Source: Bacteroidia bacterium (GTDB taxonomy: Bacteria; Bacteroidota; Bacteroidia; UKL13-3). Taken from it: a stretch of 37,309 bases of DNA. The notes beneath the pieces are model-generated. The model worked only from the letters and a program-made list of their open reading frames with translations. It was not told where the DNA came from and ran no database searches. Each line of letters opens with the position of its first letter. Within the stretch, counting starts at the first letter, position 1. The translations under genes and the position numbers were made by a program. Shown here in pieces: positions 6,001-25,433 of this stretch. The stretch is from positions 1 to 37,309 of the forward strand of contig JBIINH010000004.1 in the NCBI GenBank assembly GCA_044337585.1. The letters run 5' to 3'.

Positions 6001-6578
6001 ATCCTTTACCTGTTCAAATTAGTCGTTTCGAAGCGATGAGAAGAGGAGCTGATGCCGAATTGATATGGACAACTGCATCTGAAATTAATGCATCACATTT
6101 TGTAATAGAACGAAGCGTAAACAACAAAGATTGGGATGCAGTAGGTAAGGTTTCTAGCAAAAATGGAAATTCAAATACAACTCAGTCTTATATCTTCCTT
6201 GATGTTAATGTTCAACAAACTTCTGGAGCTTCGTTAGTATACTATCGCTTAAGAGCTGTAGATATTGACGGAACATCAGAGATAACTCCAACTAGAAAAG
6301 TAAATTTCGAAAGTCGAATTGGCGAAAGAGAAATAAGTGTTTATCCAAACCCATTCAGAAACCAAATCACATTAAACATCAATAGTACAGTTGATACAGA
6401 TGCAACGATTAATGTTTATGACATTTATGGAAAACGCGTTTTACAATTTACTAGATCAATTGTGTATGGCGAAAATGGAATTATTATCAATGATTTAAAT
6501 ATTCTAAAACAAGGTATGTATATTGTTAAAGTTTCCATAGACGGAAAAGAACAAGCAGCAAAGTTGATTAAAGAATAA
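3..6578 (+). CDS. Giant T9SS type A sorting-domain protein with repeated right-handed beta-helix and CARDB/Ig-like modules (5'-truncated by window)
   Basis: Frame is open from position 3 (GAIVNKNGYF...) into the ATG at 57, so the true start lies upstream. N/T/G/S-rich beta-helix strands (IxNNxI). Four (P/V)DIGx(F/Y/H) motifs. Pre-CTD Ig domain 'PLPVQISRFEA...WTTASEIN...ERS'. CTD 'SVYPNPF...INVYDIYGK...LKQGMYIVKV...KLIKE*'. Confidence 0.9.
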   Translation, partial: GAIVNKNGYFSNAANYNAMNYLGTNYPTYNNWRTFINTIDQMSSDFNPLFTDAANADFRPREGWYAGNGDTIAVVTSYYNGVTRTLPVDIGAFQANPLMLDVAAGNLILPTTPFAAGSQPISVTIRNGGVATITSAIIDWTVNGVPQTPLTFTGSLLPGTFSAPILLGTLTVAQGLLYNISATVSAPNSSIDGNLTNNTITGQTAALLPGGTYTINAGGVGATNFTSLGAFTNIVNIGGIGGAITINYVANSGPYTEQVFFRAISGLSGINNITVNGNGEFVQFNNLDASSIGIINLLGTDYVTFNGLNVRSLNPSNGIGYLLSAGADSINILNCTIDISSVTGSLNSAGIAVTAALNSPTTNGPNVGRFNRFENNTITGSGTGGPFYAISISCHNSSSGPNNGYVVRNNIMRDFTSYGIYLYGTIGSIISGNVMSRPSRNFNTTIYGIYGIQFMSGDTIENNRIFKPFDAIQTSTSQFYGMYFIATNTPSNRPLIVKNNLIYDIKSNGAIYGFYSLVSNSIRFYHNTIEFDHIASTSTQPASHVYVSSSATGLIYRNNIFLMNRGGTGAKHLIYLTNTGTIANYLFTNNCYHLKVPAGGGTSNHIGFYNAANRTLLSDWVTATGFDSSSTNADPKFRTFLLNAPLTPGNDSLNNRAFNVNTEVQRDVAGFLRSATPDIGAYEFIVPAADAGLVKFTAPVIRSVSLFSSVNVDVQLKNFGAAPLSTVDLNWRVDTNAMTGTTWSGTLAPDDTVNTALGSFFVSVDGLYSVKAWSSNPNFITDSIRINDTINTFFCTPLSGIVTLNPTLPLSSTNVTSWQELGSLLSVCGVNGPLTVNVSSGTYNSFFNLTSIPGASSTNRITINGFDSATCVLTYNGALQRPTMLLNGAKYLEFRNIKFVTTATSTGTAVQLISNADSNTFVRCAFVAPTQTVINLNVNAFVASGSIISPTALGNSANNLLIDSCSAIGGYFGIDLYGTTSPKALNNIVRNSFVNGPSQYGIYTNFQNGVKIINNRILNVGFFANNLSTVMASISVLNSDNANEAVRNEIQNMPAGRGIEFVTNLGTNTNRQIIANNIINIGLATNITYGVFESNNAFLDLAFNAVKLNTGDQSYAGAALYTNNTSTTYSNVRIVNNIFAAPSGTLAAYAVNATNMNAATYTMNNNVYFSSGTFPFRHGGFITPTLANFSTAGNMMGPLVGNNINSQFLLPTFFSSTNLRSISPELDDSAFFLTTVTTDVDGKVRSTSTPDIGVFEFTRPAADAGVLRITSPVKPLITGLNDIVVIIKNYGVSTITTANVHYNIDTVTHVKAYTGTLAPGAIDTVRFDSTSGPSGSSQQFNFGSQFVSIKAWTSAPNSVVDSLNLNDTAFAGICGSLSGNYTINPAGSGSTNFTSIQAAVDRMNCGGVSGPVEFAISPGTYNGPFDIPYIFGASLTNTITFRSANNNAASVTLTNTSPTAATNFVLRLFGTQFVRLNRITFSTNNPSFGRLLVIAKDLNNNLNVQELNVRNCIFNGTNTTSTADALALVFGPNGDNATFLNFIGNAFTNGSHGIWIGGQNIVNQNAFGFVADSNIFENQYYSAIWLQNRFSTFIRSNVINLNPGFVGSYGIYMLGVGQESEISYNRVNNQGGYYGISIQQNAYYDAPGLHTVKNNTIWTQNTSLNYGLFVTNSNKMRIYNNTIRMASSSSAFGFYLQGHASFFTGSTSYPASYDIMFINNIVQGAQSSTGTFGIYTTNAQANTSLVNINNNLYFSASTNVMFLNGTNYTAANFYSTYRRALNPNFESRSMFGQLTFASGSSLKANETNPSVWLANGRAQHLFFVNNDIDGNQRSIDVLTGMPDIGAHQLTPNAIPDATTISGTIGTGNTQHIIQYGDTLATINWGFSGTLPSSIIARHYPGSLISHPNLFGMTNLTNKMDEFIRVNRTGGSFFDYSITYRFDSTRLGTVNSQTDLKMAHKIDTVWTNYPFTLTTVDTVANTFSVTGLAEFGDFTGTDDINPLPVQISRFEAMRRGADAELIWTTASEINASHFVIERSVNNKDWDAVGKVSSKNGNSNTTQSYIFLDVNVQQTSGASLVYYRLRAVDIDGTSEITPTRKVNFESRIGEREISVYPNPFRNQITLNINSTVDTDATINVYDIYGKRVLQFTRSIVYGENGIIINDLNILKQGMYIVKVSIDGKEQAAKLIKE
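261..5550 (+). repeat. Degenerate protein-level tandem repeat, period ~1.72-1.78 kb (~585 aa)
   Basis: PVDIGAFQ (~261), PDIGAYEF (~2031), PDIGVFEF (~3750) and PDIGAHQL (~5526). The first three are each followed by a D(A/V)x...VxI(R/K)NxG Ig domain and a G(T/I/N)(Y/V)T(I/L)N...TN(F/V)TS motif. Confidence 0.8.
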
Positions 6579-6855: not shown

Positions 6856-6993
6856 GTAATCTGGAAAAAAATATCAGATATTCTAATTTTCAAGGTTTTG
6901 GGATTAGTAAATCAATAATTTCATCAACCAAATCACGTTAATAACATGGCATCTTGAACAGTTAAAGACACCATATATTTGGACAAATTTAAA

Positions 6994-9435
6994 ATGAGTA
7001 AGTCAACAAAAAATATAATTGTAGTGTTTGCTTCAGTGCTATTGTTAGCTGCCAGTATTGCACTATGGGCATATTCAAACCGTGACGAAATAAAGCAGTA
7101 TGTATTAACTGAAATCAATAAGTCATTAAAAACAAATATTAAGGTCGAAAGTATTCGTATTGATTTGTTTAAGCAGTTTCCAAAAGTTGGATTAAATTTT
7201 AGCGGAGTATGGGTAGAAGATGCATTTAAGAGTGATCAACCACTAATGGTAGCAGAACATGTTTATCTAGGGTTTAATTTTTGGAATATTGTTAATCACA
7301 ATTATAAAATACAACAAATCACTATAGAAAATGGGCAAATTGCATTGTCTTATGATAAATCTGATCAGCCTAATTTTGCCATATTTACAGAAGGTAGTGA
7401 CACATCTGAAATGGTTTTAAACCTTCAGAAAATTACATTAAATAATGTCGAATTTAAATATTTAAGAAAATCACTGAAGCAAGACATTAGGTTAACATTT
7501 CTTAATCAAGATGCACGGATAGATATTTCAGATACAAAAACGAGTCTTCAATTTATTGGATCTGCAACTGTTGCAAAAGTTAAGATAGATAAGACCAATT
7601 GGATTAAGGAAAAACTCATGGAAATTGATGCCTCAATGGTTTATATCGCCTCGTCTCAAACATTTATCTTTGATATACCTAAGTTATTAATTGGGAAACT
7701 AAATTTAAACGTAGATGGCAATTATATTTTTGGAAAAAGTAGAGATGAAATCGATTTGCGTATAAATACGAATAAGGTTGACATTCCTGCGATTCTAAGT
7801 ATGCTACCTATTAAACCTGAAATTATCGAAGAATGGGATGGAGACGGATTTGTGAAAATATCGGGTAACATTAAAGGTAGAGTAGGTGCCCAAAATACTC
7901 CGAATATTGATTTTGCTTTTGATGTTGATAACGGCACCCTTGTCCGTAAAAAAGATAAATTTACACTTTCACATATTACCACTAAAGCAAAACTGTCTAT
8001 AACCAAATCGCAATCAATTTTGGAGTTAGAAAAGCTATCATTAAGCATGAATAACTCTACAATGAATGGCTCACTTAAAATAGCGAACTTCAATAATGCT
8101 TATATCGAATCAAAAGTAAATATAAAAATGGATGCAACTGATTTTGCAGCATTGGCAGGCTTTGCAAATCATCAAGAAGTGTTTGGAAATATCGACTCAG
8201 ACATAGAAGTGAAAGGCTACCTAAAAGATTTAATTGACGAGAATAAAATTTTACAATCAGATATAAAAGGCAGTGCCTCATGGAATCTTAAAAATTTACA
8301 ACCCACATTTTCTAAGAATAAAATAATTGAAACAGCTGCGAATATTACTATCGGAAACTTTATTTCTATTCACTCTTTAACAGTTAAAACACAAACATCT
8401 TCAATTGTTGCTAATGGTATAATCAATAACCTTGCTGGGTATGTATTGGAGAATAAAAAATTAGATGTGAAGTTGAATCTTACAACTGATTATTTGAATT
8501 TAAATGATTGGAACTTTATATCAGAAGGTAGTGATGAAGATGAAAAATATAAACCATATGAAATTGTATTAATTTCAAAAGTTGATCGCTTTCATTACAA
8601 TAAAATTGAAGCGAGTTCTGTTCGAGCCATAGTTAACATTTCACCAAATTCGATTAATATTCAGTCGCTAGAAGCAAATGCTTTTGAAGGAAAAGTTAGA
8701 GGAGAGGTTACTTTATTCAATAACCCTAATGGATACACCATAAAGAATAATTTTGTAGTTGATAATGCTAATTTAAAAACCCTGTTTAGGCAATGCGAAA
8801 ATTTTTATCAGCAAGAAATTACAGATAAAAATCTTTCAGGTAATGTATCCGGAAATCTTCAAATGGTATCTAATTGGGATACGTTGTTGCGATGTGACTA
8901 CCCAACAATCAATGCACTATTGGAACTAGATGTCACAGAAGGTAATATTATAAACTACGAACCGTTATCCAATTTATCGAAGTTTGCAGATATAGAAGAC
9001 TTGAAAAATTTGAAAATTGCAACGCTGAAGACAACTATTTATATTAAAGACAATAAAATACAAATTCCTGAGACTGATATCGTAAACAACGCATTAAACC
9101 TTAGCATATATGGTTTTTATAGATTTGATGGATACATGGATTATCATGTAAAGGTTAAGCTTTCAGAATTGCTCATTAAGAAACGAAAGGTTAAAGTACC
9201 AACAGAATTTGAAGAGGAAACTGAAAATAAAGGAATGTATGTTTATTTGGTGATGCAAGGAACCTCTGATAATTTAAAAATTTACTATGATAAATTGTCG
9301 GCAAAGAAAAAAGTCAAGCAAGATTTGCAAACAGAGAAATCGACTATAAAGGAAGCATTCAAAAAGGAGTTTATAAAAGAAAAAAGTCCTGTAAAGGAAA
9401 CTGACTCAAAAGATTTAGAATTTGAAATAGAATGA
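6994..9435 (+). CDS. AsmA-family (AsmA-like C-terminal region) periplasm-spanning protein
   Basis: N-terminal TM anchor, then 'EINKSLKTNIKVESIRIDLFKQFPKVGLNF', long beta-rich body, and C-terminal 'NNALNLSIYG...FDGYMDYHVKVKLSELL'. ATG at 6994 is preferred over TTG at 6979 because a TATATTTG promoter box lies at 6974-6981. Confidence 0.8.
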   Translation: MSKSTKNIIVVFASVLLLAASIALWAYSNRDEIKQYVLTEINKSLKTNIKVESIRIDLFKQFPKVGLNFSGVWVEDAFKSDQPLMVAEHVYLGFNFWNIVNHNYKIQQITIENGQIALSYDKSDQPNFAIFTEGSDTSEMVLNLQKITLNNVEFKYLRKSLKQDIRLTFLNQDARIDISDTKTSLQFIGSATVAKVKIDKTNWIKEKLMEIDASMVYIASSQTFIFDIPKLLIGKLNLNVDGNYIFGKSRDEIDLRINTNKVDIPAILSMLPIKPEIIEEWDGDGFVKISGNIKGRVGAQNTPNIDFAFDVDNGTLVRKKDKFTLSHITTKAKLSITKSQSILELEKLSLSMNNSTMNGSLKIANFNNAYIESKVNIKMDATDFAALAGFANHQEVFGNIDSDIEVKGYLKDLIDENKILQSDIKGSASWNLKNLQPTFSKNKIIETAANITIGNFISIHSLTVKTQTSSIVANGIINNLAGYVLENKKLDVKLNLTTDYLNLNDWNFISEGSDEDEKYKPYEIVLISKVDRFHYNKIEASSVRAIVNISPNSINIQSLEANAFEGKVRGEVTLFNNPNGYTIKNNFVVDNANLKTLFRQCENFYQQEITDKNLSGNVSGNLQMVSNWDTLLRCDYPTINALLELDVTEGNIINYEPLSNLSKFADIEDLKNLKIATLKTTIYIKDNKIQIPETDIVNNALNLSIYGFYRFDGYMDYHVKVKLSELLIKKRKVKVPTEFEEETENKGMYVYLVMQGTSDNLKIYYDKLSAKKKVKQDLQTEKSTIKEAFKKEFIKEKSPVKETDSKDLEFEIE

Positions 9436-9440
9436 TAATA

Positions 9441-9977
9441 ATGGAAAAAGAATTAGGAATAGGCTCAAGGGTTTCGCATCCCAACTACGGAAATGGCGTG
9501 GTAATTAATACAAAATCGAATCTATATTCAATTGTATTTATTGACTATGGACGTAAAGACATTAGCAAAGATCAGAATCAACTCGAAATTGTTGAGTTAA
9601 TAGAATCGCCTGACGACCTTATTAGCAGCGCAGATGTAGAAAGAAGTTTGATTCAAATATTGAAGCGATGGAGCGATATACAAGAAGATGTGAGTTTAGG
9701 CAGCAAATGGCTTGGCGGAAAAATGATATTGCAACCAGCTGATAGAAATGTTCAGGGCAAAGAAATTCCGATTGAAACATTTTTTCATAAAATAGTGATG
9801 TTACGAGATAGGCTTCGTGTAATGGAACAACGCATTAATGCGCATGAAAAATTGACAGATGAAGATAAGGTAAATATGCAACAATATATTACCCGAATAT
9901 ATGGGTCTCTAACCTCTTTTAATATCCTTTTCAAATTTCCACATGATCATTTCGTTGGAGAAAAGGGTAAGGAGTAA
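9441..9977 (+). CDS. Conserved hypothetical protein with N-terminal Tudor/SH3-like motif
   Basis: 'LGIGSRVSHPNYGNGVVI' resembles the GxxVxHxxFGxGxV motif. Helical C-terminus 'FFHKIVMLRDRLRVMEQRINAH'. Start at 9432 (ATGA overlap) or 9441. Confidence 0.75.
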   Translation: MEKELGIGSRVSHPNYGNGVVINTKSNLYSIVFIDYGRKDISKDQNQLEIVELIESPDDLISSADVERSLIQILKRWSDIQEDVSLGSKWLGGKMILQPADRNVQGKEIPIETFFHKIVMLRDRLRVMEQRINAHEKLTDEDKVNMQQYITRIYGSLTSFNILFKFPHDHFVGEKGKE

Positions 9978-14811: not shown

Positions 14812-15756
14812 ATGAAGATTTTAATTGTAGATAATGTTCATGAACTCCTGATAATTGGATTGCAAAATGAAGGGCATGAAGTTCATTATCTTCCATTGAT
14901 ATCAAGAAATGAAATCAAACAGATCTTACCAGCATTTGAACTTTTAGTTATAAGAACAAAAACAGAAGTAGATGCACATTTACTGGGCGCTGCCAAAAAC
15001 TTAAAACTTATTGCAAGGGCAGGAGCTGGATTGGATAATATTGATATAGCATACTGTGAAAAATATAATATACATTGTATTCACGCTGGAGGTGCAAATG
15101 CCAACTCGGTTGGTGAGCACGCTGTTGGGATGTTATTATCACTTTTACATAAGTTAACCAAAGCAGACAAAGAGGTTAAGTCCTTAATATGGGACCGAAA
15201 TGGAAATACTGGAAATGAATTAAGAGGAAAAACAATAGGAATTATTGGATACGGAAATACAGGGTCTGCTTTTGCAAAATGCCTTTCAGGTTTTGGGGTG
15301 AAGGTATTGGCATATGATAAATACCGAAAAAACTACTCAGATACATTTGCTCAAGAAGCCAGTCTTGAAATGATTTATGAGCAGGCAGATATTGTCTCAT
15401 TCCACGTGCCACTTACTTTAGAAACTAAGTATTATTTTAATGACGTTTTTGTAGCCCAAATGAAAAAACCGTTCATATTGCTGAATTTAAGTAGGGGAGA
15501 AGTTGTGCAAACATCAGCGATAATAGATGCGTTGGAAAAAAATAAAATGACTTCAGCTGGTTTAGATGTATTGGAAAATGAGAAAATTGAAAACCTTTCA
15601 AATGAGCAAAAAGTGCTTTTTGAAAAGCTTATACAATACCCAAATGTGATGCTTTCACCACATGTTGGGGGGTGGTCACAACAATCATACGAAAACATTG
15701 CAAAACTTTTATTGCGTAAAATCAAAGAGTTAACCCCAATGTTAGCACATAGTTAA
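14812..15756 (+). CDS. D-isomer-specific 2-hydroxyacid dehydrogenase (SerA-like, no ACT domain)
   Basis: ARAGAGLDNID, GIIGYGNTG, HVPLT, NLSRG, LDVLENE, SPHVGG. Confidence 0.9.
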   Translation: MKILIVDNVHELLIIGLQNEGHEVHYLPLISRNEIKQILPAFELLVIRTKTEVDAHLLGAAKNLKLIARAGAGLDNIDIAYCEKYNIHCIHAGGANANSVGEHAVGMLLSLLHKLTKADKEVKSLIWDRNGNTGNELRGKTIGIIGYGNTGSAFAKCLSGFGVKVLAYDKYRKNYSDTFAQEASLEMIYEQADIVSFHVPLTLETKYYFNDVFVAQMKKPFILLNLSRGEVVQTSAIIDALEKNKMTSAGLDVLENEKIENLSNEQKVLFEKLIQYPNVMLSPHVGGWSQQSYENIAKLLLRKIKELTPMLAHS

Positions 15757-15817
15757 GTGATAATTAAAAAGACATTTTGATATATAATTTTAAAATAATT
15801 TAATTTACAAACATTAA

Positions 15818-15849
15818 TTTGATAAAGACTGTGCAGTTTTATATCCTTG
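15818..15849 (+). promoter_or_regulatory. Putative promoter of the TBDR-cargo-PorV operon
   Basis: TTTG (15818-15821), 20-nt spacer, TATCCTTG (15842-15849; one mismatch to TAnnTTTG). Confidence 0.5.
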
Positions 15850-15898
15850 TAAACCATTCAATGGGTTAAATCTGCCTTACATAAAAAATCAATTGCGC

Positions 15899-18800
15899 AT
15901 GAAAAACATATACAGTTTATTATTAGCCTTATTTGGCTTTTGTTTAGTAGCTAACGCACAATCCCAACTCGGAGAAATCAGGGGTAAAGTAATAGACTCA
16001 AAATCTAAAAAACCACTTGAATATGCAAGTGTTACCATCGAATTAAACGGCAATGCTAGGGCAACAACCCTTACAGATGATGATGGAAACTTTATTGTAA
16101 AAACCTTACAACCTGGCGAGTACATCATAAAAGTTACCTATACAGGATATGTTAATGCAGTAGTGAGTGGAGTAGATGTTATCAGTGACCAAATCACATT
16201 TCAAAATGTTACCATGCAACTGAAAGAAGACGGTAAAGTATTGGAGGAAGTAGTCATAAAACGTAAAAAGCCATTGGTTGACCCTGAAGGAAAAGGCGGA
16301 GGCACCAAAACATCGAAAGAAATCATGGCTTTGCCACAACGTAACGTAAACATGGTGGCAAATACAGTTGCCGGTGTGGATGCAAGGTCAGGAGGAACAC
16401 CTAATATTCGTGGAGCACGTGCTGATGGTACTGCTTATTACATTGATGGTGTTCGTGTGCAAGGTGGTTCAAGTGTTAATATTCCTCAAAATGCCATTGA
16501 CCAAATTCAGATTATTACCGGTGGAACGCCCGCACAATATGGCGACTTTACTGGAGGTGCCATCGCCATAAATACCAAAGCTCCTTCAAGAAATTGGAAT
16601 AGGGGGTTTGAATACATTACAGCTTCACCTTTTAATGGTTATTTAGACAATACCCAGTACAATGAACTCCAAATGTTTGTTTCGGGTCCAATGAAGATAT
16701 TTAATAAAGGAAGAGGTGAACAAGAGCGTATTTTAGGATTCTCATTGGCTGCAAGTGGTGTTTATGTTTTAGATGGACGACCTTCCGCAGTTGATTTATA
16801 TAAGGTAAACGATGCCAAACTAAAGGAGTTAAAAGAAAGACCACTCGTTCAACAGCAAGGGGGAGGATTTGTTCCAGCAGGAGAGTATCTTTTAAATTCT
16901 GATTTGACAAGAGTAGATTACAGGCAAAATGCATCAAATTACAATATTTCACTTCAAGGAAACTTTACCTACCAAGCAAGTAAAAACATATTCATAAGGG
17001 TAGGTTACCAAGGAACCATGTCTCGAGGAAGAAACTTTAACTATGCACAATCACTTACCAATTCAGATTTAAACTCGTTTAGTAAAGACAACACATTTAG
17101 AACATACCTTCAATTTACCCAAACATTCGCTCCTAAAAAAGGAGAAGATGGAAAGGTAAAACCTCAAACTGTTACCAATGCATATTACACAGTACGTGCA
17201 TCTTATGAAGTAAGGAATGCAGAGACCATGGATGCAGACTATGGCACCGATTTTTTCAACTATGGATTTTTAGGCACATTTACTAATTACAGCACTCCTG
17301 TATATCAACGAGTAACGAAACAATTTGGTGACTCAGCTGATGTCTATTATTTAGATGGTACAGGTCAAGAAATTAGATTGAGCTCTACTTATGCAAAGCA
17401 AGTTGGTACATTTGATACCCTACTTACATTTCAACAAGCTAATTACAATACAACAAGAGGGAATTATACAAACCAAATTTATGATTTCTTTGGACAAGCA
17501 GGACAACGTGTAAGCAATATCAGCCAGCTTCGTGGATTGGGTGGATTGGTAAACGGTGACCAACCACAAGGTATTTACTCTAATTTATGGGCAAGCCCGG
17601 GATTACAGCAGGGTGCCAGCTATTCTAAATTTAACAACGAAGCCATTACCCTATTTGTAATGAGTGAAGCTTCAGTAGCCCCTAAAAACAAACCCAAAGC
17701 AAAACACGATTTACAATTTGGATTTACATACGAACAGCAGTTTAGAAGACAGTATGTTTTAGGTGCAAATGGTCTTTGGTCTTTAATGCGCTTATTGGTG
17801 AACTCACATATATTAGGACCAGACTCCTCTCGTGCAATTGTTAAATATGACCAAAACGGGGTGTTCCAAGATACGGTTTGGTTTAAAGATAGAGTTGATT
17901 TTTCATCACAAAGTAACTTTGACAAAAATCTGCGCGATAAATTAGTAGCCATGGGTGCTCGTGATGCAAATGGCAATTTGATTGATGAATCAACAAGACT
18001 TAATCCAAATATGTATGATCCTAGTATGTATTCATTGGATATGTTCACCGCAGATGAATTGTTGAACAATGGAAATTCATTTGTAGGATACAATGGATAT
18101 GACCATTTAGGAAGACGTGTAAATGGACAAGTTTCCATTGACCAGTTTTTAAATGATCCAACAAGAAGATTACTTGGAGCATACCAACCAATTTATACGG
18201 CTGCTTGGATTCAAGACAAATTTGTTTTCAAAGATTTGATTGTAAGATTAGGTCTACGTATGGAAAGATTTGATGCCAATCAGCTTATCTTAAAAGATCC
18301 GTATTCGATGGCGCCTGTATTTACAGCAGGAGACGTTAGAAGAGGGGCAGCAAGCAAAGTTGGCGAATCGGCTATCCCAACATCTATAGGAGATGATTAC
18401 GTGGTTTACGTTAATGACCATGAACAAAGAGGCTCTACGCTTCAAGTGACTGGATTTCGTCAAGGAAATAGCTGGTTTGATAGAAACGGAAACCCAGTTA
18501 CCGATCCCAACGCTTTATGGAGAGATGCGCAAGAAGCCGGTATTAATACATCACTCAATCAAAACATTCCTTATCTTCAAAAAGCCGGACAACGCACACC
18601 TGATCAAAATTCATTTGTTGGGTATACACCTGATTTAAAGTTTTTACCACGTATCTGGTTCTCATTCCCAATCTCAACCACATCTCAACTTTTTGGAACT
18701 TATGATGTACTCGCACAACGCCCAACTGAAGGTAATATCGCTCAATTTGATGATTATTATTTTTTACCAAATCGATTGAATGGTGTAATTGCCAATCCTG

Positions 18801-19702
18801 ATTTGCGTATGACACAAGTAACAGATTATGAAATAGGATTCCGTCAGCAAATAGGACAAGATGCAGCATTAGGTATTATTGCATCATATCGTGAATTTAG
18901 AAACTTGATTACTCTATTCCGTTATGCTCAAGCATGGCCAAATGAGTACAATTCATTTGGAAACTTAGATTTTTCAACTGTAAAATCAGTTAGGTTAGAG
19001 TATGAATTAAGAGAACTTGGAAATGTAAATATTTCAGCAAACTACATGTTACAATTTGCCGATGGTACTGGTTCCAACTCTCAACAAAGCGCACAATTAA
19101 TCCAATCGGGTTTAGGTAACCAACGAAACATATTCCCGATGAACTTCGACACACGCCACACTTTGAAAGGAATTTTTGATTTTCATTACAGAAGTGGAAA
19201 AGAATACAACGGACCAATTGTTGGAGGTAAAAAAATATTTGAAAATGCAGGTATAAATATGATTTTCAACTTTACTTCAGGAAGACCATATACACAACAA
19301 ATCATACCTACTCCTGAAGTACAACCAGGTGTAGTAGCTCGTAGCCAAGTAAAAGGTACAATCAATGGAGCCCGCCTTCCCTCTCAGTTTTTTGCTGATT
19401 TGAATGTTGATAAAAACTTCAATTTTACAAACCAAAGATTGGATGGAAAAACAACAGTATACCGGTTGCGTGTTTACCTATGGGTTCAAAATTTATTTAA
19501 TAATATTAATGTGCTAAACGTTTATCGCTACACAGGTTCTGCTTATGATGATGGGTATATAACATCATCTTTAGCACAGGCACAAAGAGATGCTGCAACC
19601 AATGCACAATCTTTAGTTGACTTGTATAACGTAAGGGTAGTGGATCCTGGTAATTTTGCCTTGCCACGTATTACCCGTTTAGGTTTAGCACTTTACTTCT
19701 AA
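15899..19702 (+). CDS. Large TonB-dependent receptor with N-terminal carboxypeptidase-regulatory-like domain
   Basis: Signal peptide (ANA|QSQ). CarboxypepD_reg-like 'GEIRGKVID...PLEYASV...TDDDGNF...PGEYIIKVTYTGY'. Plug 'NIRGAR...YYIDGV...IDQIQIITGGTPAQYGDFTGG'. Barrel strands ending in the C-terminal aromatic 'LGLALYF*'. Confidence 0.88.
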   Translation: MKNIYSLLLALFGFCLVANAQSQLGEIRGKVIDSKSKKPLEYASVTIELNGNARATTLTDDDGNFIVKTLQPGEYIIKVTYTGYVNAVVSGVDVISDQITFQNVTMQLKEDGKVLEEVVIKRKKPLVDPEGKGGGTKTSKEIMALPQRNVNMVANTVAGVDARSGGTPNIRGARADGTAYYIDGVRVQGGSSVNIPQNAIDQIQIITGGTPAQYGDFTGGAIAINTKAPSRNWNRGFEYITASPFNGYLDNTQYNELQMFVSGPMKIFNKGRGEQERILGFSLAASGVYVLDGRPSAVDLYKVNDAKLKELKERPLVQQQGGGFVPAGEYLLNSDLTRVDYRQNASNYNISLQGNFTYQASKNIFIRVGYQGTMSRGRNFNYAQSLTNSDLNSFSKDNTFRTYLQFTQTFAPKKGEDGKVKPQTVTNAYYTVRASYEVRNAETMDADYGTDFFNYGFLGTFTNYSTPVYQRVTKQFGDSADVYYLDGTGQEIRLSSTYAKQVGTFDTLLTFQQANYNTTRGNYTNQIYDFFGQAGQRVSNISQLRGLGGLVNGDQPQGIYSNLWASPGLQQGASYSKFNNEAITLFVMSEASVAPKNKPKAKHDLQFGFTYEQQFRRQYVLGANGLWSLMRLLVNSHILGPDSSRAIVKYDQNGVFQDTVWFKDRVDFSSQSNFDKNLRDKLVAMGARDANGNLIDESTRLNPNMYDPSMYSLDMFTADELLNNGNSFVGYNGYDHLGRRVNGQVSIDQFLNDPTRRLLGAYQPIYTAAWIQDKFVFKDLIVRLGLRMERFDANQLILKDPYSMAPVFTAGDVRRGAASKVGESAIPTSIGDDYVVYVNDHEQRGSTLQVTGFRQGNSWFDRNGNPVTDPNALWRDAQEAGINTSLNQNIPYLQKAGQRTPDQNSFVGYTPDLKFLPRIWFSFPISTTSQLFGTYDVLAQRPTEGNIAQFDDYYFLPNRLNGVIANPDLRMTQVTDYEIGFRQQIGQDAALGIIASYREFRNLITLFRYAQAWPNEYNSFGNLDFSTVKSVRLEYELRELGNVNISANYMLQFADGTGSNSQQSAQLIQSGLGNQRNIFPMNFDTRHTLKGIFDFHYRSGKEYNGPIVGGKKIFENAGINMIFNFTSGRPYTQQIIPTPEVQPGVVARSQVKGTINGARLPSQFFADLNVDKNFNFTNQRLDGKTTVYRLRVYLWVQNLFNNINVLNVYRYTGSAYDDGYITSSLAQAQRDAATNAQSLVDLYNVRVVDPGNFALPRITRLGLALYF

Positions 19703-19713
19703 TTTTAAAAAGT

Positions 19714-22700
19714 ATGATGAAGATGAAAAATAGGTTTAGTAGCATAATTCCCACTATATTAATGTGGACACTACTTTGCACGCAAGTTGCACCCTCATTT
19801 GCAAAACAAAATGCAGGATCTCCAAATGATCCAAAACAGCCACCAAGAGAACGACAATATCAGAAAGCAGGATGTCGCCCAGCAACCGCACAACGTGACT
19901 TGGATTTGAATAATGTTAGAACAACCATTTTGAATGGAGGAGACATGTGGTGGAATTTAAGTAATGCACGTTATGAAATTCCTAAAGTGCAAACAGGTCA
20001 AGTTGCTAAGCATTCTATGTTTGCTGGTGCCTTATGGATAGGAGGAGTTACTGCTGGTAATTTGCGAATTGCAGCACAAACTTATCGCCAAAGTGGAAAT
20101 GATTATTTTCCTGGTCCTCTAACTAATGGGGCTGCTTCCATTACCGAAGAGCGTTGCAAAGAATTTGATTACATATCAAAAGTAACGTTACAAGAAATTG
20201 ATGCTTTTAGAATTGATGAAACCAGATGGGCAGATCCTAGCGAAGAATTCGTTAAATGGCCTATGGGTAACCCGGCAAATGGCGAAGAACAAAATCTCGC
20301 TCCTTATTATGACAATAATGGAAATAATATTTACGAACCATCAGAGGGTGATTATCCATCGTTTGAGCAGAATAACCCACGCAATATTCCTGATATGATG
20401 TTATTTGTACTTTACAATGATAAAGGAAATATTCATACAGAATCAGAAGGTTTGCCAATTGGTTTAGAATTACAAACTACATGTTTTGCCTACGCAACAA
20501 ATGATGAAATTAATAACATGACCTTTTACCGAACTGTGGTAATCAATAGAGGAAATGAAACAATTGACAGTTGTGTATTTGGACAATGGGTAGATCCAGA
20601 TTTGGGTAATTATGCTGATGACTATGTAGAATGTGATGTGCCAAGAAACCTGGGAATTTGCTATAATGGTGACGATAATGACGAAGGAACCTTTGGCTAC
20701 GGACTTAATCCGCCAAGTGTCGGGGTAACTTTCTTCGAAGGTCCAAGAAGGCCAGACGGCACTGAAATTGGGCTAACCAAATTTGTATATTATAATAATG
20801 ATTTTGGTTTACAAGGTAACCCAACAAGACCTGAGCATTTTTGGGGTTATCTGAATGGGCGATGGAAAGATGGAGCGCCTATTACTTATGGAGGTCAAGG
20901 ACGCGGTGGTGCAGATACTGCTAGTTTCATGTTTCCCGGAGTAACAGATCCAGCAGGGCGTGCCAATTGGACAGAACGTATTGCCGGTAATCCCCCAGCT
21001 GATAGGAGATTTTTGCAAACAGCTGGCTCATTTAGCTTACTTCCTGGTGCACGCAACAATGTAACTATTGCAGTAATTTGGGCGAGGTCATCAACAGGTG
21101 GTGCCACAGGTTCTTTCAACTTATTAAAACAAGCAAGTGATAAAGCATTCACACTTTATAAAAATAACTTTAACATCATTACTGGTCCTGACGCACCTGT
21201 ATTGCAAGTTGTTGAGGTTGATAGCCGTTTGATTTTAAATCTAACTAATACAGATGTTGTAGAGAATTTTGTGGATACATTTGCAGGCCCATGTACAGAT
21301 AGAACGGTATTCAAATTTCAAGGGTACCAAATATTCCAACTTAAGACCCCAAATATTCCAAGTGATATATACAATCAGGACGAAGCCCGATTAGTGGCCC
21401 AATATGATATTGTTGACGGTGTTGCGCGTTTGGTAAACTCAATTTATGATCCCGAGTTAGAAGAAGATGTTAAGAAAATAATGGTTGAAGGTCAAGACAA
21501 AGGTATTAGGCATTCATTAGAAATTTCGAAAGACCTTTTTGAAACAGGCTCTGATCAAACTCTTGTGAACTTTAAAAATTACCATTTCGTTATCTTTGCA
21601 TATGCATACGCTTCGAATTGTGTGAATGATGTAACCCAATATTTACCAAGTCGTAAAACAATTGGTCGCAGAGATCTGAGTGTCTATACAGCAACTCCAC
21701 ACCCTAGAGAAGGTTATAAAAATGGTGCACAAATCAATGCATCTTATGGCGATGGTTTTATTATCAACCAATTGGAAGGTATTGGTAATGGAGCGCAAGA
21801 ATTAGATTTAACAGCCCAATCTGTGACTGAATTAATGAGTCCAGCAAATAATTATTTCTCTCCTGTGAGATCTTATGTTGCGGGTAAAGGTCCAATTAAC
21901 GTGAAAGTTATTGATCCTGTAAAACTTCCAGATACAGAATTTCATCTTTATATGCGTGATACATCAGCCAATGCGAAAAAAGATTCATCACTTTCTAGAG
22001 CAGCTACTTATTGGTTCCTAAAAAATGTTTCCACTGGTGAAGTAGTACGAGGTTCAAAAGTTATTGGCTCTGATAACGAACAAATATTTGCAAATTGGGG
22101 CTTGTCAGTACAAATTAATCAAGCTTTGATTCCGGGTTCGGGCGATGCAGATCCAACAAATGGGTATATTACATCAAGCATTCAATTTGCTAATCCTGCA
22201 AATGAGTGGTTAGATGGAGTACGTGATGAAGATGCGAGTTTCTCTAACATTCCTTATGCTCCTCAGCTAACACTTGCACCACAGTTTAACTGGATTAGAA
22301 GTGGAAGTGCTGGCTCAACCAGAAGTCCGGCATTCAGCAACGGAGAATTAGACGATTATGGTTTTAGTACCGGTGCATTGGATTCTCGTAGGGCTTATAG
22401 CAATATTATTAGTTCAAAATGGGCGCCATATGCTCTAGCATCTAGTTGGAGAACAAACGAACCAACTAAATTTCCAACCTTCGGGGCGGCTTGGGACTTA
22501 TCAGCAGGAGTTAATGGTCCAGGACAAAATAATTCGTTGGGTGCTGGAACAGCTAGGATAGATAATGCATTGTCTGATTTGCAAGGAATAGATATTGTGT
22601 ATACATCTGATCGCTCAAAATGGACCCGCTGTATTGTAGTAGAAATGGGAGAGAATGCCTCATTAAATCAAGGATTAGTAGATAAGCATGATGTAAGAAG

Positions 22701-23715
22701 GGCTGCATCTGTCGATAAATTTGGCCGTAAAGTTGGTGATCCGGGTGCAATCAATGATCCTTCAAATCCTGAAGCAGCAAATTATGTAGCTGATTCTGGA
22801 ATGAGTTGGTTTCCCGGCTATGCTTATAATATTGAAACTGGAGAACGCCTCAATATTATTTTTGGCGAAGACTCATCTTTGCCATTAGAAAACGGTAGTG
22901 ATATGGTTTGGAATCCAACAGCTAGGTTCCTAGACTTCAACTCTGCAAGACCTTTGTTTGGCGGAAAACACTATGTATATGTTTTAGGTAGCAACAAGAA
23001 ATTCAATCTTGGTAGTGGCCCATCCGGATTTTCACTTATGCCAACACGTTATGACGAATGTAAGTATGTACGTTGCATAATGGATATGAATTGTGATCCA
23101 CGCGGAAATGGGATTCAGTCAGCAATTAGTCCTAATTATTTGGTACGTAAACGCATGCTATACGCACAAGTGATGTGGACTTCGATGCCTTATTTATCAA
23201 ACGGATCAAAGCTATTGTCAATCGAAGAAGGTCTTATTCCTTCTGAAGCTAAAATAAGAATCAGGGTAAAGAGGCCTTATGCTATACATTCGCACACAGC
23301 CACAACAATCAACGACAGTATGCCTTACTACACGTTTAAAACTACCGGTGTTGCACCAACCATCTCAAAAGAAGCCGGTTTGAAATTGTTAGATAATGTA
23401 GCTGTGGTTCCTAATCCATATTATGCAAATTCAATTTATGAAGACCCGGGCAATCAATTGTCTTCTAGGGTTAGGATTGTGAATCTACCTCCACGTTGTA
23501 CCATTAGGATTTATACCGTTGATGGCAGTTTGGTAAGAACCATCAAAAAAGATGACCCAAATGCACCATATATCGAATGGGATATTAAAAATGATGCCCA
23601 AGTTCCGATTGCCAGTGGCATGTATCTTATACATGTAAAAGCAACAGATTTGGGTGAAGAGCGCATTATCAAATGGTTTGGAATTATGAGAACCGCAGAT
23701 TACGATACATTCTAA
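19714..23715 (+). CDS. Large secreted protein of unknown function with T9SS-like/FlgD-Ig C-terminal domain
   Basis: Signal peptide (PSFA|KQN). C-terminus 'VAVVPNPYY...NLPPRCTIRIYTVDGSLVRTIKK...IEWD...IASGMYLIHV...KW'. Lies 11 nt after the TBDR stop; start could be 19714, 19717 or 19723. Confidence 0.85.
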   Translation: MMKMKNRFSSIIPTILMWTLLCTQVAPSFAKQNAGSPNDPKQPPRERQYQKAGCRPATAQRDLDLNNVRTTILNGGDMWWNLSNARYEIPKVQTGQVAKHSMFAGALWIGGVTAGNLRIAAQTYRQSGNDYFPGPLTNGAASITEERCKEFDYISKVTLQEIDAFRIDETRWADPSEEFVKWPMGNPANGEEQNLAPYYDNNGNNIYEPSEGDYPSFEQNNPRNIPDMMLFVLYNDKGNIHTESEGLPIGLELQTTCFAYATNDEINNMTFYRTVVINRGNETIDSCVFGQWVDPDLGNYADDYVECDVPRNLGICYNGDDNDEGTFGYGLNPPSVGVTFFEGPRRPDGTEIGLTKFVYYNNDFGLQGNPTRPEHFWGYLNGRWKDGAPITYGGQGRGGADTASFMFPGVTDPAGRANWTERIAGNPPADRRFLQTAGSFSLLPGARNNVTIAVIWARSSTGGATGSFNLLKQASDKAFTLYKNNFNIITGPDAPVLQVVEVDSRLILNLTNTDVVENFVDTFAGPCTDRTVFKFQGYQIFQLKTPNIPSDIYNQDEARLVAQYDIVDGVARLVNSIYDPELEEDVKKIMVEGQDKGIRHSLEISKDLFETGSDQTLVNFKNYHFVIFAYAYASNCVNDVTQYLPSRKTIGRRDLSVYTATPHPREGYKNGAQINASYGDGFIINQLEGIGNGAQELDLTAQSVTELMSPANNYFSPVRSYVAGKGPINVKVIDPVKLPDTEFHLYMRDTSANAKKDSSLSRAATYWFLKNVSTGEVVRGSKVIGSDNEQIFANWGLSVQINQALIPGSGDADPTNGYITSSIQFANPANEWLDGVRDEDASFSNIPYAPQLTLAPQFNWIRSGSAGSTRSPAFSNGELDDYGFSTGALDSRRAYSNIISSKWAPYALASSWRTNEPTKFPTFGAAWDLSAGVNGPGQNNSLGAGTARIDNALSDLQGIDIVYTSDRSKWTRCIVVEMGENASLNQGLVDKHDVRRAASVDKFGRKVGDPGAINDPSNPEAANYVADSGMSWFPGYAYNIETGERLNIIFGEDSSLPLENGSDMVWNPTARFLDFNSARPLFGGKHYVYVLGSNKKFNLGSGPSGFSLMPTRYDECKYVRCIMDMNCDPRGNGIQSAISPNYLVRKRMLYAQVMWTSMPYLSNGSKLLSIEEGLIPSEAKIRIRVKRPYAIHSHTATTINDSMPYYTFKTTGVAPTISKEAGLKLLDNVAVVPNPYYANSIYEDPGNQLSSRVRIVNLPPRCTIRIYTVDGSLVRTIKKDDPNAPYIEWDIKNDAQVPIASGMYLIHVKATDLGEERIIKWFGIMRTADYDTF

Positions 23716-23773
23716 TTGAAAAAATGGGGTAGGTTGAGTTGATTAATCTACCCCCTAATAAAATAAAGAAGTG

Positions 23774-24865
23774 ATGAAAAAATATATACGACTATCATTA
23801 ATAACCGTTGGATTACTTAACGGTATAGCGTTTGCTGGTAATCCTGATCGCTCAGGAGGAGCAGGTGCAAATCAAACACTCCTTAGTCCTTACGCTAGAC
23901 CCGCTTCAATGATGGGTGCGAATATGGCAAGCCTTAGAGGTGTAGAAGCCATGCACTTTAATGTTGGTGGTTTGGCTTATGTTTCTTCAACAGAGATAAG
24001 TGCGAACCGTGTGGTTTATTTACAGGGTACCGACATATTTTTAAACAACGTTTCGCTGGGCCAAAATTTAGGTGGAGGCAATGTAATTGGCATTTCTCTT
24101 ACAAGTATGCAATTGGGAGACATAAGAATACGCACTGAAGCACAGCCTAATGGCGATATTGGTACATTTACTCCACAAGTAATAAACTTAGGGTTTGCAT
24201 ATGCCAAACAATTTTCAAACAGTATAACGGCAGGTGCCCTTATCAGACTAATCTCTGAAGGTGTTCAGGACGCAAAAGCAACAGGTATTGGTTTTGAATT
24301 TGGTGTTCAATACCAAACAGCATTAAATTCAAAAGATAAATTAAAAAAGGAAGATTTTCGATTTGGAATTGGGGTTAGAAATATTGGCTCTGATATGAAA
24401 TATTCGGGCTCGGGTTTATCATTTCGTTCAGTAAATCCTAATACAGATGCTGATAGAAAAGCATATTACGATGCTGAACAATTTAACTTGCCAGCATTGA
24501 TGCATATTGGTGTTTCGTATGATATTCGATTAGACAAGAAAGGTTCTGAAACATATTACAACAAGCTCACCTTAAACGGTAATTTTAACTATAACGCTTT
24601 CTCCGGAAATATCACGTCTTTGGGTGCAGAGTATGCATATAAAGAAACATTTATGGTTCGTGGTGGATATGGATTTCAAGCAGATATATTCAATGATAAT
24701 TTCAGAACACAATATTTAGGCTATGCCGGTGGATTTGGCATGTTGCTTCCACTTACCAAAGATGGGTTGAAATTAGGGATAGATTACTCCTACGCTCCAA
24801 CACGTGTATTTAACGGAGTACATACGATAGGTCTACGTATGTTACTAGGAAATAAAAAAGATTAA
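23774..24865 (+). CDS. PorV/PorQ-family (FadL-like) outer-membrane beta-barrel
   Basis: Signal peptide (AFA|GNPDR). 'LLSPYARPASMMGA...EAMHFNVGGLA' matches the PorV-type ARxxxMG...xxNPAGL motif. 'GVRNIG', 'LPALMHIG', 'GAEY...VRGGY', 'IDYSY...HTIGLR'. Start at GTG 23771 or ATG 23774. Confidence 0.82.
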   Translation: MKKYIRLSLITVGLLNGIAFAGNPDRSGGAGANQTLLSPYARPASMMGANMASLRGVEAMHFNVGGLAYVSSTEISANRVVYLQGTDIFLNNVSLGQNLGGGNVIGISLTSMQLGDIRIRTEAQPNGDIGTFTPQVINLGFAYAKQFSNSITAGALIRLISEGVQDAKATGIGFEFGVQYQTALNSKDKLKKEDFRFGIGVRNIGSDMKYSGSGLSFRSVNPNTDADRKAYYDAEQFNLPALMHIGVSYDIRLDKKGSETYYNKLTLNGNFNYNAFSGNITSLGAEYAYKETFMVRGGYGFQADIFNDNFRTQYLGYAGGFGMLLPLTKDGLKLGIDYSYAPTRVFNGVHTIGLRMLLGNKKD

Positions 24866-24887
24866 TTATATTCGAATCAAATTATAA

Positions 24888-24924
24888 AGAGAAACGTTTC
24901 CGTTAGGAGGCGTTTCTCTGTTTT
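24888..24924 (+). terminator. Terminator-like hairpin between the PorV-like gene and greA
   Basis: AGAGAAACGTTTCC-GTTA-GGAGGCGTTTCTCT (14-bp stem with two G-U pairs), followed by GTTTT. Confidence 0.65.
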
Positions 24925-24935
24925 ATACCAAAACG

Positions 24936-25433
24936 ATGGCAAAAGCTCCGGTAAAAGTTAATACAGAAATCAACTACGTTTCAAAAGACGGATTTGAGAA
25001 AATGAACAAAGAATTGCATGAACTGAAATATGTTCAGCGCCCTTTTATTTCAAAACAAATAGCAGATGCCAGAGACAAAGGCGATTTAAGTGAAAATGCA
25101 GAATACCATGCTGCAAAAGAAGACCAAGGGCATCTTGAAGCTAAGATTGCGCAATTAGAGACATTGATTAGTCGATCGCGGATAATTGATGAAACCAAAT
25201 TGGATACAAGCAAAGTGATGATGCTAAGTAAGGTTACTGTTAGGAATTCGAGCACAAAGAAAGATATGATTTACACACTTGTTTCAGAAAATGAAGCCGA
25301 TTTTAAAACAGGTAAAATTTCATTTAAATCTCCAATTGGTGCAGGACTCATGGGAAAAAAAGTAGGCGATAAAATTGAAGTTTCGGTACCAGCCGGACAA
25401 ATTCTACTAGAAATTATAAATATCACCTTATAG
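24936..25433 (+). CDS. greA: Transcription elongation factor GreA
   Basis: ARDKGDLSENAEYHAAK, GKISFKSPIGAGLMGKKVGD. Confidence 0.96.
   Translation: MAKAPVKVNTEINYVSKDGFEKMNKELHELKYVQRPFISKQIADARDKGDLSENAEYHAAKEDQGHLEAKIAQLETLISRSRIIDETKLDTSKVMMLSKVTVRNSSTKKDMIYTLVSENEADFKTGKISFKSPIGAGLMGKKVGDKIEVSVPAGQILLEIINITL

Follow-up and report, generated by a model that had tools for sequence, protein, structure and literature searches.

In the stretch of Bacteroidia bacterium DNA analysed here (37,309 nucleotides of contig JBIINH010000004.1, hereafter the window), positions 15899-24865 contain three open reading frames (ORFs) on the + strand, to which all coordinates given below for this locus refer. 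Their products resemble a TonB-dependent transporter (TBDT), a giant secreted protein that we call the cargo, and a barrel of the PorV/PorQ family. The TBDT gene (15899..19702) starts with ATG and encodes 1267 aa, with a signal peptide and the C-terminus ...LALYF; an upstream TTG at 15893 is an alternative start that would lengthen the product to 1269 aa. The cargo gene (19714..23715; 1333 aa) follows after 11 nt, and the barrel gene (23771..24865; 364 aa from a GTG start, with an ATG at 23774) after a further 55 nt to the GTG or 58 nt to the ATG. The co-oriented arrangement and close spacing described in a first-pass annotation of this DNA are thus borne out by the ORF coordinates. We report here that this triplet is conserved well beyond the window, and that it may constitute a module linking a type IX secretion system (T9SS) to TonB-powered uptake.

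At the sequence level, the first protein has the architecture of an Oar-type outer-membrane transporter: behind an N-terminal extension come a TonB-box-like strand and then a plug, and a large, divergent barrel makes up the rest. The extension (15977..16219) matched the CarboxypepD_reg family PF13620 at 58.2 bits (cut-off 32.3) and the plug (16310..16558) matched PF07715 at 40 bits (cut-off 23.9). Between them lies the strand LEEVVI (residues 115-120; 16241..16258), a position occupied in most of the 22 orthologues of alignment A6 by a hydrophobic strand of variable sequence, with GEVVVEYERPLI in distant classes; LEEVVI is a putative TonB box, by resemblance to that of SusC-like transporters. 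The plug motifs RG.R..YYIDG and PA.YGD..GG.I.ITTK are conserved among the orthologues, and a profile of the TBDT (A7) matched the plugs of PirA and PfeA with E 9e-6 to 1.5e-3. The barrel part of the window protein matched no Pfam barrel model even at E<=10 and no PDB sequence; the distant orthologues L088, L089 and L100 match PF00593, a further one (L086) matches PF25183 (OMP_b-brl_4), and the Atlas neighbours of the protein carry the annotation TonB-dependent receptor. No NCBIfam family was matched at E<=0.01, hence no SusC/RagA family (NCBIfam signature TIGR04056). The order of PF13620 followed by PF07715 places the protein in the Oar subclass, defined by a CarboxypepD_reg N-terminal extension before the plug (PMC6434023).

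The cargo matched no Pfam family, and its sequence profile retrieved nothing at E<=1 among PDB chains. Two AlphaFold models, based on 38 and 40 aligned natural sequences, cover its N-half (residues 40-720; predicted local distance difference test score, pLDDT, 81.8) and its C-half (residues 680-1333; pLDDT 86.3). The last ~110 residues (23374..23712) are the sole part of the C-half that matches solved structures, and at the fold level they correspond to a T9SS C-terminal domain (CTD), that is, a C-terminal Ig-like beta-sandwich like those already solved. The best match is the CTD of PorZ (5m11_A; Z 10.2, root-mean-square deviation [rmsd] 2.6 over 88 residues, 24% identity), also found by Foldseek at E 8e-6; other matches are PorU (6za2, Z 7.6) and the CTD of RemA in the substrate-bound T9SS (8gl6_D, Z 7.0). 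The domain carries the motifs PNPYY and SG.Y together with an extra conserved tail, KWFGIMRxxDxDTF (alignment A4). In NCBIfam, the cargo weakly matches the PorZ and PorU models at their C-termini through its last ~90 residues; with the PorZ model NF052228 it scores 28.6 bits against a cut-off of 260, over model positions 671-748 only, and is the second-best match of its own genome, after PorZ and ahead of the CTD of PorU. The identification of the cargo as PorZ itself was rejected, as the match is confined to the tail and the true PorZ lies on contig C94 with 570 bits. Neither type A model (TIGR04183, PF18962) matched the cargo at E<=0.01, and the type B model TIGR04131 was not among its NCBIfam matches; the type A models do match the ORF at 57-6578 of the window and a cargo paralogue on contig C178. 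The atypical T9SS-like tail suggested by the first-pass annotation is therefore upheld, in that it fails both type A models yet folds like the CTD of PorZ. A review describes the CTDs of PorZ and PorU as retained on PorQ and PorV, respectively, and puts forward the idea that CTDs are shielded from cleavage by cognate barrels of the PorV type (PMC10202324).

The remainder of the cargo can be divided into a head and a middle region. The head (residues ~54-489; 19873..21180; model m610ebc8837fd) is predicted to be a galactose-mutarotase-like beta-supersandwich, with 9ju0 (Z 19.4, rmsd 3.2, 252 residues aligned) as its best match in VIA-align and 1lf6 at Z 17.4. This is the fold of the N-terminal domains of enzymes of glycoside hydrolase families GH15, GH65, GH94 and GH116, and the head also matches the P1 domain of YidC (Z 13.4). 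Foldseek with the N-half model returned low TM-scores only (~0.25), and the supersandwich was seen by VIA-align. Two acidic motifs of the head, DxDLGNxxDDY and YNGDDNDEG, are invariant and may represent calcium sites, which they resemble. The middle region (residues ~680-1215; 21751..23358) was confidently modelled, and a search with the whole C-half model found no solved chain at Z>=8 for it. Since Chitinophagales-like relatives have Ig/cadherin-like repeats (Big_9, Cadherin_5) in its place, what stays constant in the protein is its head and its CTD.

The family to which the cargo belongs is very large and almost entirely without Pfam annotation. At least 2809 relatives were found in a large protein collection, named, where at all, 'hypothetical' and in one case 'T9SS type A sorting domain-containing'. 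A profile of the N-half matched 9908 clusters at 50% identity, 5633 of them at E<=1e-30, and 29 of 32 sampled representatives had no Pfam family at E<=1e-5. The paralogue in the same genome (C178:17957-20611, equivalent to L098:6958-9612) has 884 aa, a head 30% identical over residues 57-474 and a canonical type A CTD; it stands alone, with neither a TBDT nor a barrel beside it.

The third protein matched the Pfam family PorV (30.6 bits) and the NCBIfam PorV/PorQ family NF033709 (132.6 bits, model positions 9-323, cut-off 90); the PorP/SprF family was not among its Pfam or NCBIfam matches. It falls short of all three equivalog models, with 69.8 bits for PorV (cut-off 250), 51.4 for PorQ (220) and 31.8 for PorV2 (325). 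Its genome (a 2.3-Mb assembly, 94% complete) contains six PorV-family matches, among them a true PorV (496 bits) adjoining PorU, a PorQ (322 bits) and a PorV2 (471 bits); the others are the window barrel, a weak match on C110 and an unclassified paralogue on C193. A profile of the triplet barrels (A5) gave 380-497 bits for these and at most 175 for all other paralogues. A tree was built of 53 sequences, 29 of them paralogues taken from six genomes and the other 24 triplet barrels (alternate rows of A5 and its final six). The triplet barrels formed one clade (SH-aLRT 99), separate from those of PorV, PorQ and PorV2. On scores, equivalogs, profile and tree we therefore reject the barrel as a canonical PorV, PorQ or PorV2, and the earlier proposal that it is a distinct paralogue and not the sole PorV of the genome agrees with these data. 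The C193 paralogue (C193:3475-4485, L002; 188 bits, no equivalog passed) adjoins the gene of a 417-aa protein without a family, and groups in the tree with a paralogue (L124) of the complete genome G128; in the region of the latter (L154), a TBDT lies immediately upstream.

An interaction between the CTD and the barrel was modelled from barrel residues 23-363 and the last 139 residues of the cargo. The interface score ipSAE was 0.86, 0.88 and 0.88 in three runs that share at least 91% of their contacts, with a partner pLDDT of at least 73, and the best of three controls reached 0.00; the mark applied is attained by 58 of 80 solved complexes and by 2 of 110 mismatched pairs. The predicted interface includes the PNPYY and SG.Y regions and the extra C-terminal tail. 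This prediction supports binding of the kind seen between CTDs and PorV, leaving stability and specificity aside, and the interface postulated in the first-pass annotation is thus obtained with clean controls, as a likeness to PorV-CTD pairs more than as proof.

The triplet proved to be widely conserved. A scan of one genome per species gave 579 stretches encoding cargo relatives, of which the best 79 loci were taken and 57 had sufficient room (>=3.9 kb upstream and 1.3 kb downstream), the other 22 being dropped. TBDT, cargo and barrel were found in the same order and on the same strand in 55 of these 57 loci; L052 and L055 are extra cargo copies, and were rejected as counter-examples since both genomes carry a complete triplet elsewhere. 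Among 15 distant regions hand-picked around cargo-like matches from a sample of 401 genomes of the phylum, 13 hold the full triplet at about 25-40% identity. The other two are the lone C178 paralogue with its type A CTD (L098), and L100 (G353:C1:2325000-2344000), where a TBDT matching PF00593 and a PorV-like barrel accompany a 1181-aa protein that has the CTD alone in common with the window cargo. The synteny foreseen in the first-pass annotation is therefore present in both near and distant loci. Some loci vary the layout: L053 has TBDTs in tandem, and in L094 the barrel is followed by a second cargo. Across 61 loci the percent identities of the three proteins co-vary (r 0.95-0.98), a correlation that agrees with inheritance of the triplet as a unit and that shared descent alone could also yield.

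Additional genes accompany the triplet in several of the distant loci. Proteins with a GWxTD domain (PF20094), of which we found no mention in the literature searched, are encoded directly after the barrel in L086 (12717-14249), L087 (5420-6853) and L099 (4196-5590 and 2800-4161). In L088 (5103-7274), L089 (13163-15328) and L090 (12468-14657) the barrel is followed by a gene for a protein of ~725 aa with C-terminal TPR repeats and weak multihaem-cytochrome-like matches, the individual stretches being mostly below threshold. Upstream in L100 lies a gene for an FG-GAP protein with a T9SS tail.

With presence called at E<=1e-70, triplet-type barrels occur in 111 of the 401 sampled genomes. In the class of the window organism the set of barrel-positive genomes coincides with that of genomes encoding a full-length cargo (16, besides its own); 21 of the 111 carriers, all in other classes, hold 2-3 such barrels. 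SprA was detected in 312 of the 401 genomes, and since none of the 89 SprA-negative genomes (all 87 of one family and two others) has the barrel, all 111 carriers are T9SS-positive. Conversely, 201 of the 312 SprA-positive genomes are without a triplet-type barrel, including 28/28 and 12/12 in two families of the same class, and on this distribution the module was rejected as a core T9SS component: it probably depends on the T9SS and is not part of it. The notion of a core rather than mobile function, put forward in the first-pass annotation on account of the neighbouring housekeeping genes, accordingly holds in part; vertical inheritance and the housekeeping setting are supported, whereas the module is accessory, being present in 111/401 genomes and missing from those two families. 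The window genome itself encodes SprA, GldM, PorU, PorV, PorZ and PorQ. Its SprA is split between C19:638-5995 (model positions 511-2319) and C189:6474-8156 (1-554), most likely by an assembly break and not by a broken gene. With the two SusD models used, PF07980 and PF14322, no match was obtained in this 94% complete genome, in G083 or in G128; the genome G036 has 6 matches to PF07980 and 5 to PF14322, on overlapping ORFs.

A similar layout surrounds other members of the PorV family. In G036 and G128, both of them complete genomes from other classes, there are 16 and 14 PorV-family members, respectively, compared with 3-6 in the Bacteroidia genomes examined. We took the regions around all 14 G036 paralogues that are neither PorV nor of triplet type (13 regions) and around 7 of the 12 in G128. 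In 14 of these 20 regions an extension-plus-plug TBDT (129-215 bits), a CTD protein and a PorV-like barrel follow one another in that order; a further 2 have a TBDT directly beside the barrel and 4 have neither neighbour. The middle proteins of the 14 cassettes (615-1319 aa) all lack Pfam families and share a related CTD (47-90 bits), and those cassette TBDTs that were checked carry CarboxypepD_reg, plug and barrel models. Because the layout recurs around these paralogues, the window triplet can be regarded as the best-conserved member of a multi-copy, diversified cassette type resembling the core of a polysaccharide utilization locus (PUL).

Taken as a mechanism, these data lead us to a tentative reading, to which we assign a little less than an even chance, in which the three genes form one co-inherited module and the cargo, delivered by the T9SS and anchored by the barrel, is the extracellular partner of an importer powered by TonB. 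Homology identifies the first protein as an Oar-architecture TonB-dependent transporter. The cargo would be exported by Sec and then by the T9SS, as its signal peptide, the fold of its CTD and the complete T9SS of the genome suggest. Its CTD would remain uncleaved and dock in the private barrel, as that of PorZ does on PorQ; the likeness of the CTDs, the co-encoded barrel and the predicted complex point in this direction, and cargo held in such a manner would be displayed at the surface without a lipid anchor. The supersandwich head would then be presented to the TBDT, with the cargo acting as a capture, lid or processing partner, a step for which gene order is the sole pointer. A substrate, probably polymeric or a glycan, would finally be imported with TonB-derived energy, the cargo having the same role as SusD-type lipoproteins have for SusC.

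Several observations weigh against this importer reading. The co-operation of cargo and TBDT in import is its weakest step. The pore of the window TBDT and the direction of transport are assumed from orthologues, as no barrel model matched the protein itself; for one Oar-type TBDT the reported function is protein secretion and not import (PMC6434023), and the TonB-box-like strand is poorly kept in some close relatives (LTTAVI, LKTFTKK). Since PorV-CTD complexes have been solved, the success of the CTD:barrel model may reflect likeness to known structures such as 8gl6, and the prediction is compatible with both a stable anchor and a transient shuttle. The supersandwich is common to enzyme accessory domains and the P1 domain of YidC, and glycan binding does not follow from it. 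Neither a regulator nor a catabolic enzyme is linked to the locus to hint at a substrate, and the fourth genes of the distant loci encode GWxTD or TPR/multihaem-like proteins, not carbohydrate-active enzymes (CAZymes).

An alternative that we consider unlikely is that the barrel is a private shuttle which escorts the cargo from the T9SS translocon, after which the cargo is cleaved and released or attached elsewhere and no stable complex persists. Either free or at the surface, the cargo would then act as an enzyme or a binding protein, and the co-expressed TBDT would import its products. PorV-family proteins are known shuttles (PMC12618676, PMC10202324), the predicted interface uses regions (PNPYY, SG.Y) common to CTDs, and gene order alone is compatible with co-regulation. 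Yet the CTD of the cargo is nearer to the retained CTDs of PorZ and PorU than to those of cleaved cargo and fails the type A hidden Markov models, its extra conserved tail touches the barrel in the model, and a dedicated barrel maintained across the phylum for one cargo would be a costly means of escort in a genome that already has PorV.

The trio could also be a non-nutritional surface or envelope machine, either an attachment-complex-like assembly or one for adhesion or surface-layer construction, in which the TBDT-like barrel would provide a structural platform, or else a channel by which an envelope component is exported. The 201 SprA-positive genomes (of 312) that lack the barrel argue against a core T9SS or envelope part, the multi-copy diversified modules of other classes resemble substrate-specific uptake loci, and the plug and TonB-box-like strand are conserved; we hence judge this explanation quite unlikely, even though the nearest likenesses of the CTD are with T9SS components, the surroundings are housekeeping genes without a regulator, and some lineages carry Ig/cadherin-like repeats where the middle region would be. 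A precedent is offered by BamG-BamH, in which a FadL-like barrel anchors a surface subunit of the Bacteroidota beta-barrel assembly machinery (BAM; PMC12578637, PMC12611786).

An outward-acting TBDT, which would export or help assemble the cargo or another substrate that the PorV-like barrel then receives, as in the Oar/PopC case of Myxococcus, appears very unlikely. It is favoured by the Oar-type domain architecture (PMC6434023) and by the match of orthologue L086 to PF25183 (OMP_b-brl_4); this architecture, however, dominates among Bacteroidetes TBDTs and is not diagnostic of secretion (PMC6434023), and with a T9SS CTD on the cargo and SprA in 111/111 carriers the T9SS is the obvious export route. 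Mere adjacency of three genes without a functional link is scarcely credible given that order and strand are kept in 55/57 and 13/15 loci, at identities as low as 25-35%, that the first two genes lie 11 nt apart here and that the same layout surrounds other PorV paralogues.

Complexes of a TBDT with a partner, among them SusCD, RagAB and BtuBG, have a central place in the feeding of Bacteroidota, as the T9SS has in building their surface. SusC/SusD, RagAB and BtuB-BtuG resemble the module in that the gene of an extended TBDT immediately precedes that of a large extracellular partner and that the modules are multi-copy and diversified in some genomes. In contrast to SusD, the window cargo is neither a lipoprotein nor SusD-like (no Pfam match) and would be delivered by the T9SS and held by a third protein; the window TBDT, for its part, lies outside the SusC/RagA family by the NCBIfam search described above. 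PorZ-PorQ and PorU-PorV of Porphyromonas gingivalis share with the module a retained Ig-like CTD bound by a PorV/PorQ-family barrel, a feature that is predicted for the window proteins. They differ in that beyond its tail the cargo has no relation to PorZ, the window barrel belongs to a separate clade, and the module is accessory and includes a co-inherited TBDT, in a genome that has its own PorZ, PorQ, PorU and PorV.

Systems in which a type B CTD is paired with a PorP/SprF barrel (SprB-SprF and Fjoh pairs) likewise co-encode a cargo and a dedicated barrel, and the cognate PorP/SprF barrels are reported to set the destination of type B cargo (PMC12618676); the window CTD is not of type B, its barrel is of the PorV/PorQ family, and a TBDT is part of the window module only. 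Oar of Myxococcus xanthus consists of a CarboxypepD_reg extension, a plug with TonB box, and a barrel (PMC6434023), an architecture to which the window TBDT corresponds, with a TonB-box-like strand before its plug. PopC secretion is the process in which Oar acts; it belongs to another phylum and has no CTD protein or PorV-like partner. The window barrel region, by contrast, has diverged too far to match PF00593 or PF25183. In BamG-BamH a 14-strand FadL-like barrel similarly serves as the pillar of an extracellular subunit, BamG being described as the FadL-like anchor of the BAM of F. johnsoniae and BamP as periplasmic (PMC12578637, PMC12611786). BamH, however, is a lipoprotein and not T9SS cargo, and BamG and BamH are described as universal in the phylum (PMC12611786), whereas the window barrel occurs in 111/401 genomes.

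We found no description of the triplet or of the cassette class in the literature searched, which lay mostly outside subscription journals; the parts are known, and their assembly and the link to a TBDT are, on this search, undescribed. PMC8319329, consulted on Oar-like TBDTs in blooms, contains nothing that bears on the module. If the importer reading is true, secretion by the T9SS would be tied directly to nutrient uptake, many unexplained PorV-family paralogues (14-16 family members in some genomes) would gain a defined role, it would become clear how transporters are equipped in those members of the phylum that lack SusD, and the cargo family with its 9908 clusters would have its first functional handle. 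It may even be, although we find this doubtful, that Bacteroidota possess a second, lipoprotein-independent route to extracellular partners of TBDTs, in which a T9SS-delivered protein sits by an uncleaved PorZ-like CTD in a private PorV-family barrel. The cassette would be multi-copy and diversified in non-Bacteroidia classes (at least 8 in each of two genomes) and reduced to a single conserved triplet in SusD-less Bacteroidia, as a functional counterpart, or even forerunner, of SusCD. As the triplet is present in complete genomes, probably those of isolates, these proposals can be tested experimentally.

The remaining features of the locus concern its boundaries and expression. An AT-rich intergenic region (15757..15898) precedes the TBDT gene and presumably contains the promoter. 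The Bacteroidota -7 consensus is TAnnTTTG, and no exact copy of it occurs in this region; sigma-70-like sites were at chance level (29 found, 34.6 expected from shuffles), so that the promoter-like box of the first-pass annotation could not be substantiated. The hairpin said to close the locus was recovered by the terminator scan as an intrinsic-terminator-like stem of 14 pairs followed by GTTTT (24888..24919), the sole + strand site of this kind within 15500-25200. Between cargo and barrel lies a small inverted repeat, GGGGTAG(15 nt)CTACCCC (23726..23754), which the scan did not call because its loop exceeds 8 nt; a role as an attenuator or processing site, setting how much barrel is made relative to cargo, is conceivable. 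The flanking genes are of housekeeping type, with ksgA-like, mgtE and 2-hydroxyacid dehydrogenase genes upstream and greA, HIT, RRM-protein and ruvC genes downstream. As previously noted for the locus, no susD, CAZyme, extracytoplasmic function sigma/FecR (ECF/FecR) or hybrid two-component system (HTCS) gene was found among the window neighbours.

The window also encodes a second giant T9SS cargo. The ORF at 57-6578 (+), whose 5' end is open from base 3, specifies a protein of at least 2173 aa with a canonical type A T9SS tail (PF18962 at 40.5 bits, TIGR04183 at 45.6 bits) and matches to no other family. Just 3' of it, two + strand ORFs overlap by 4 nt, 6979-9435 (818 aa) and 9432-9977 (181 aa), with no Pfam or NCBIfam match at 1e-5; the region 6979-9977 has the lowest GC content of the window, 0.31-0.33.

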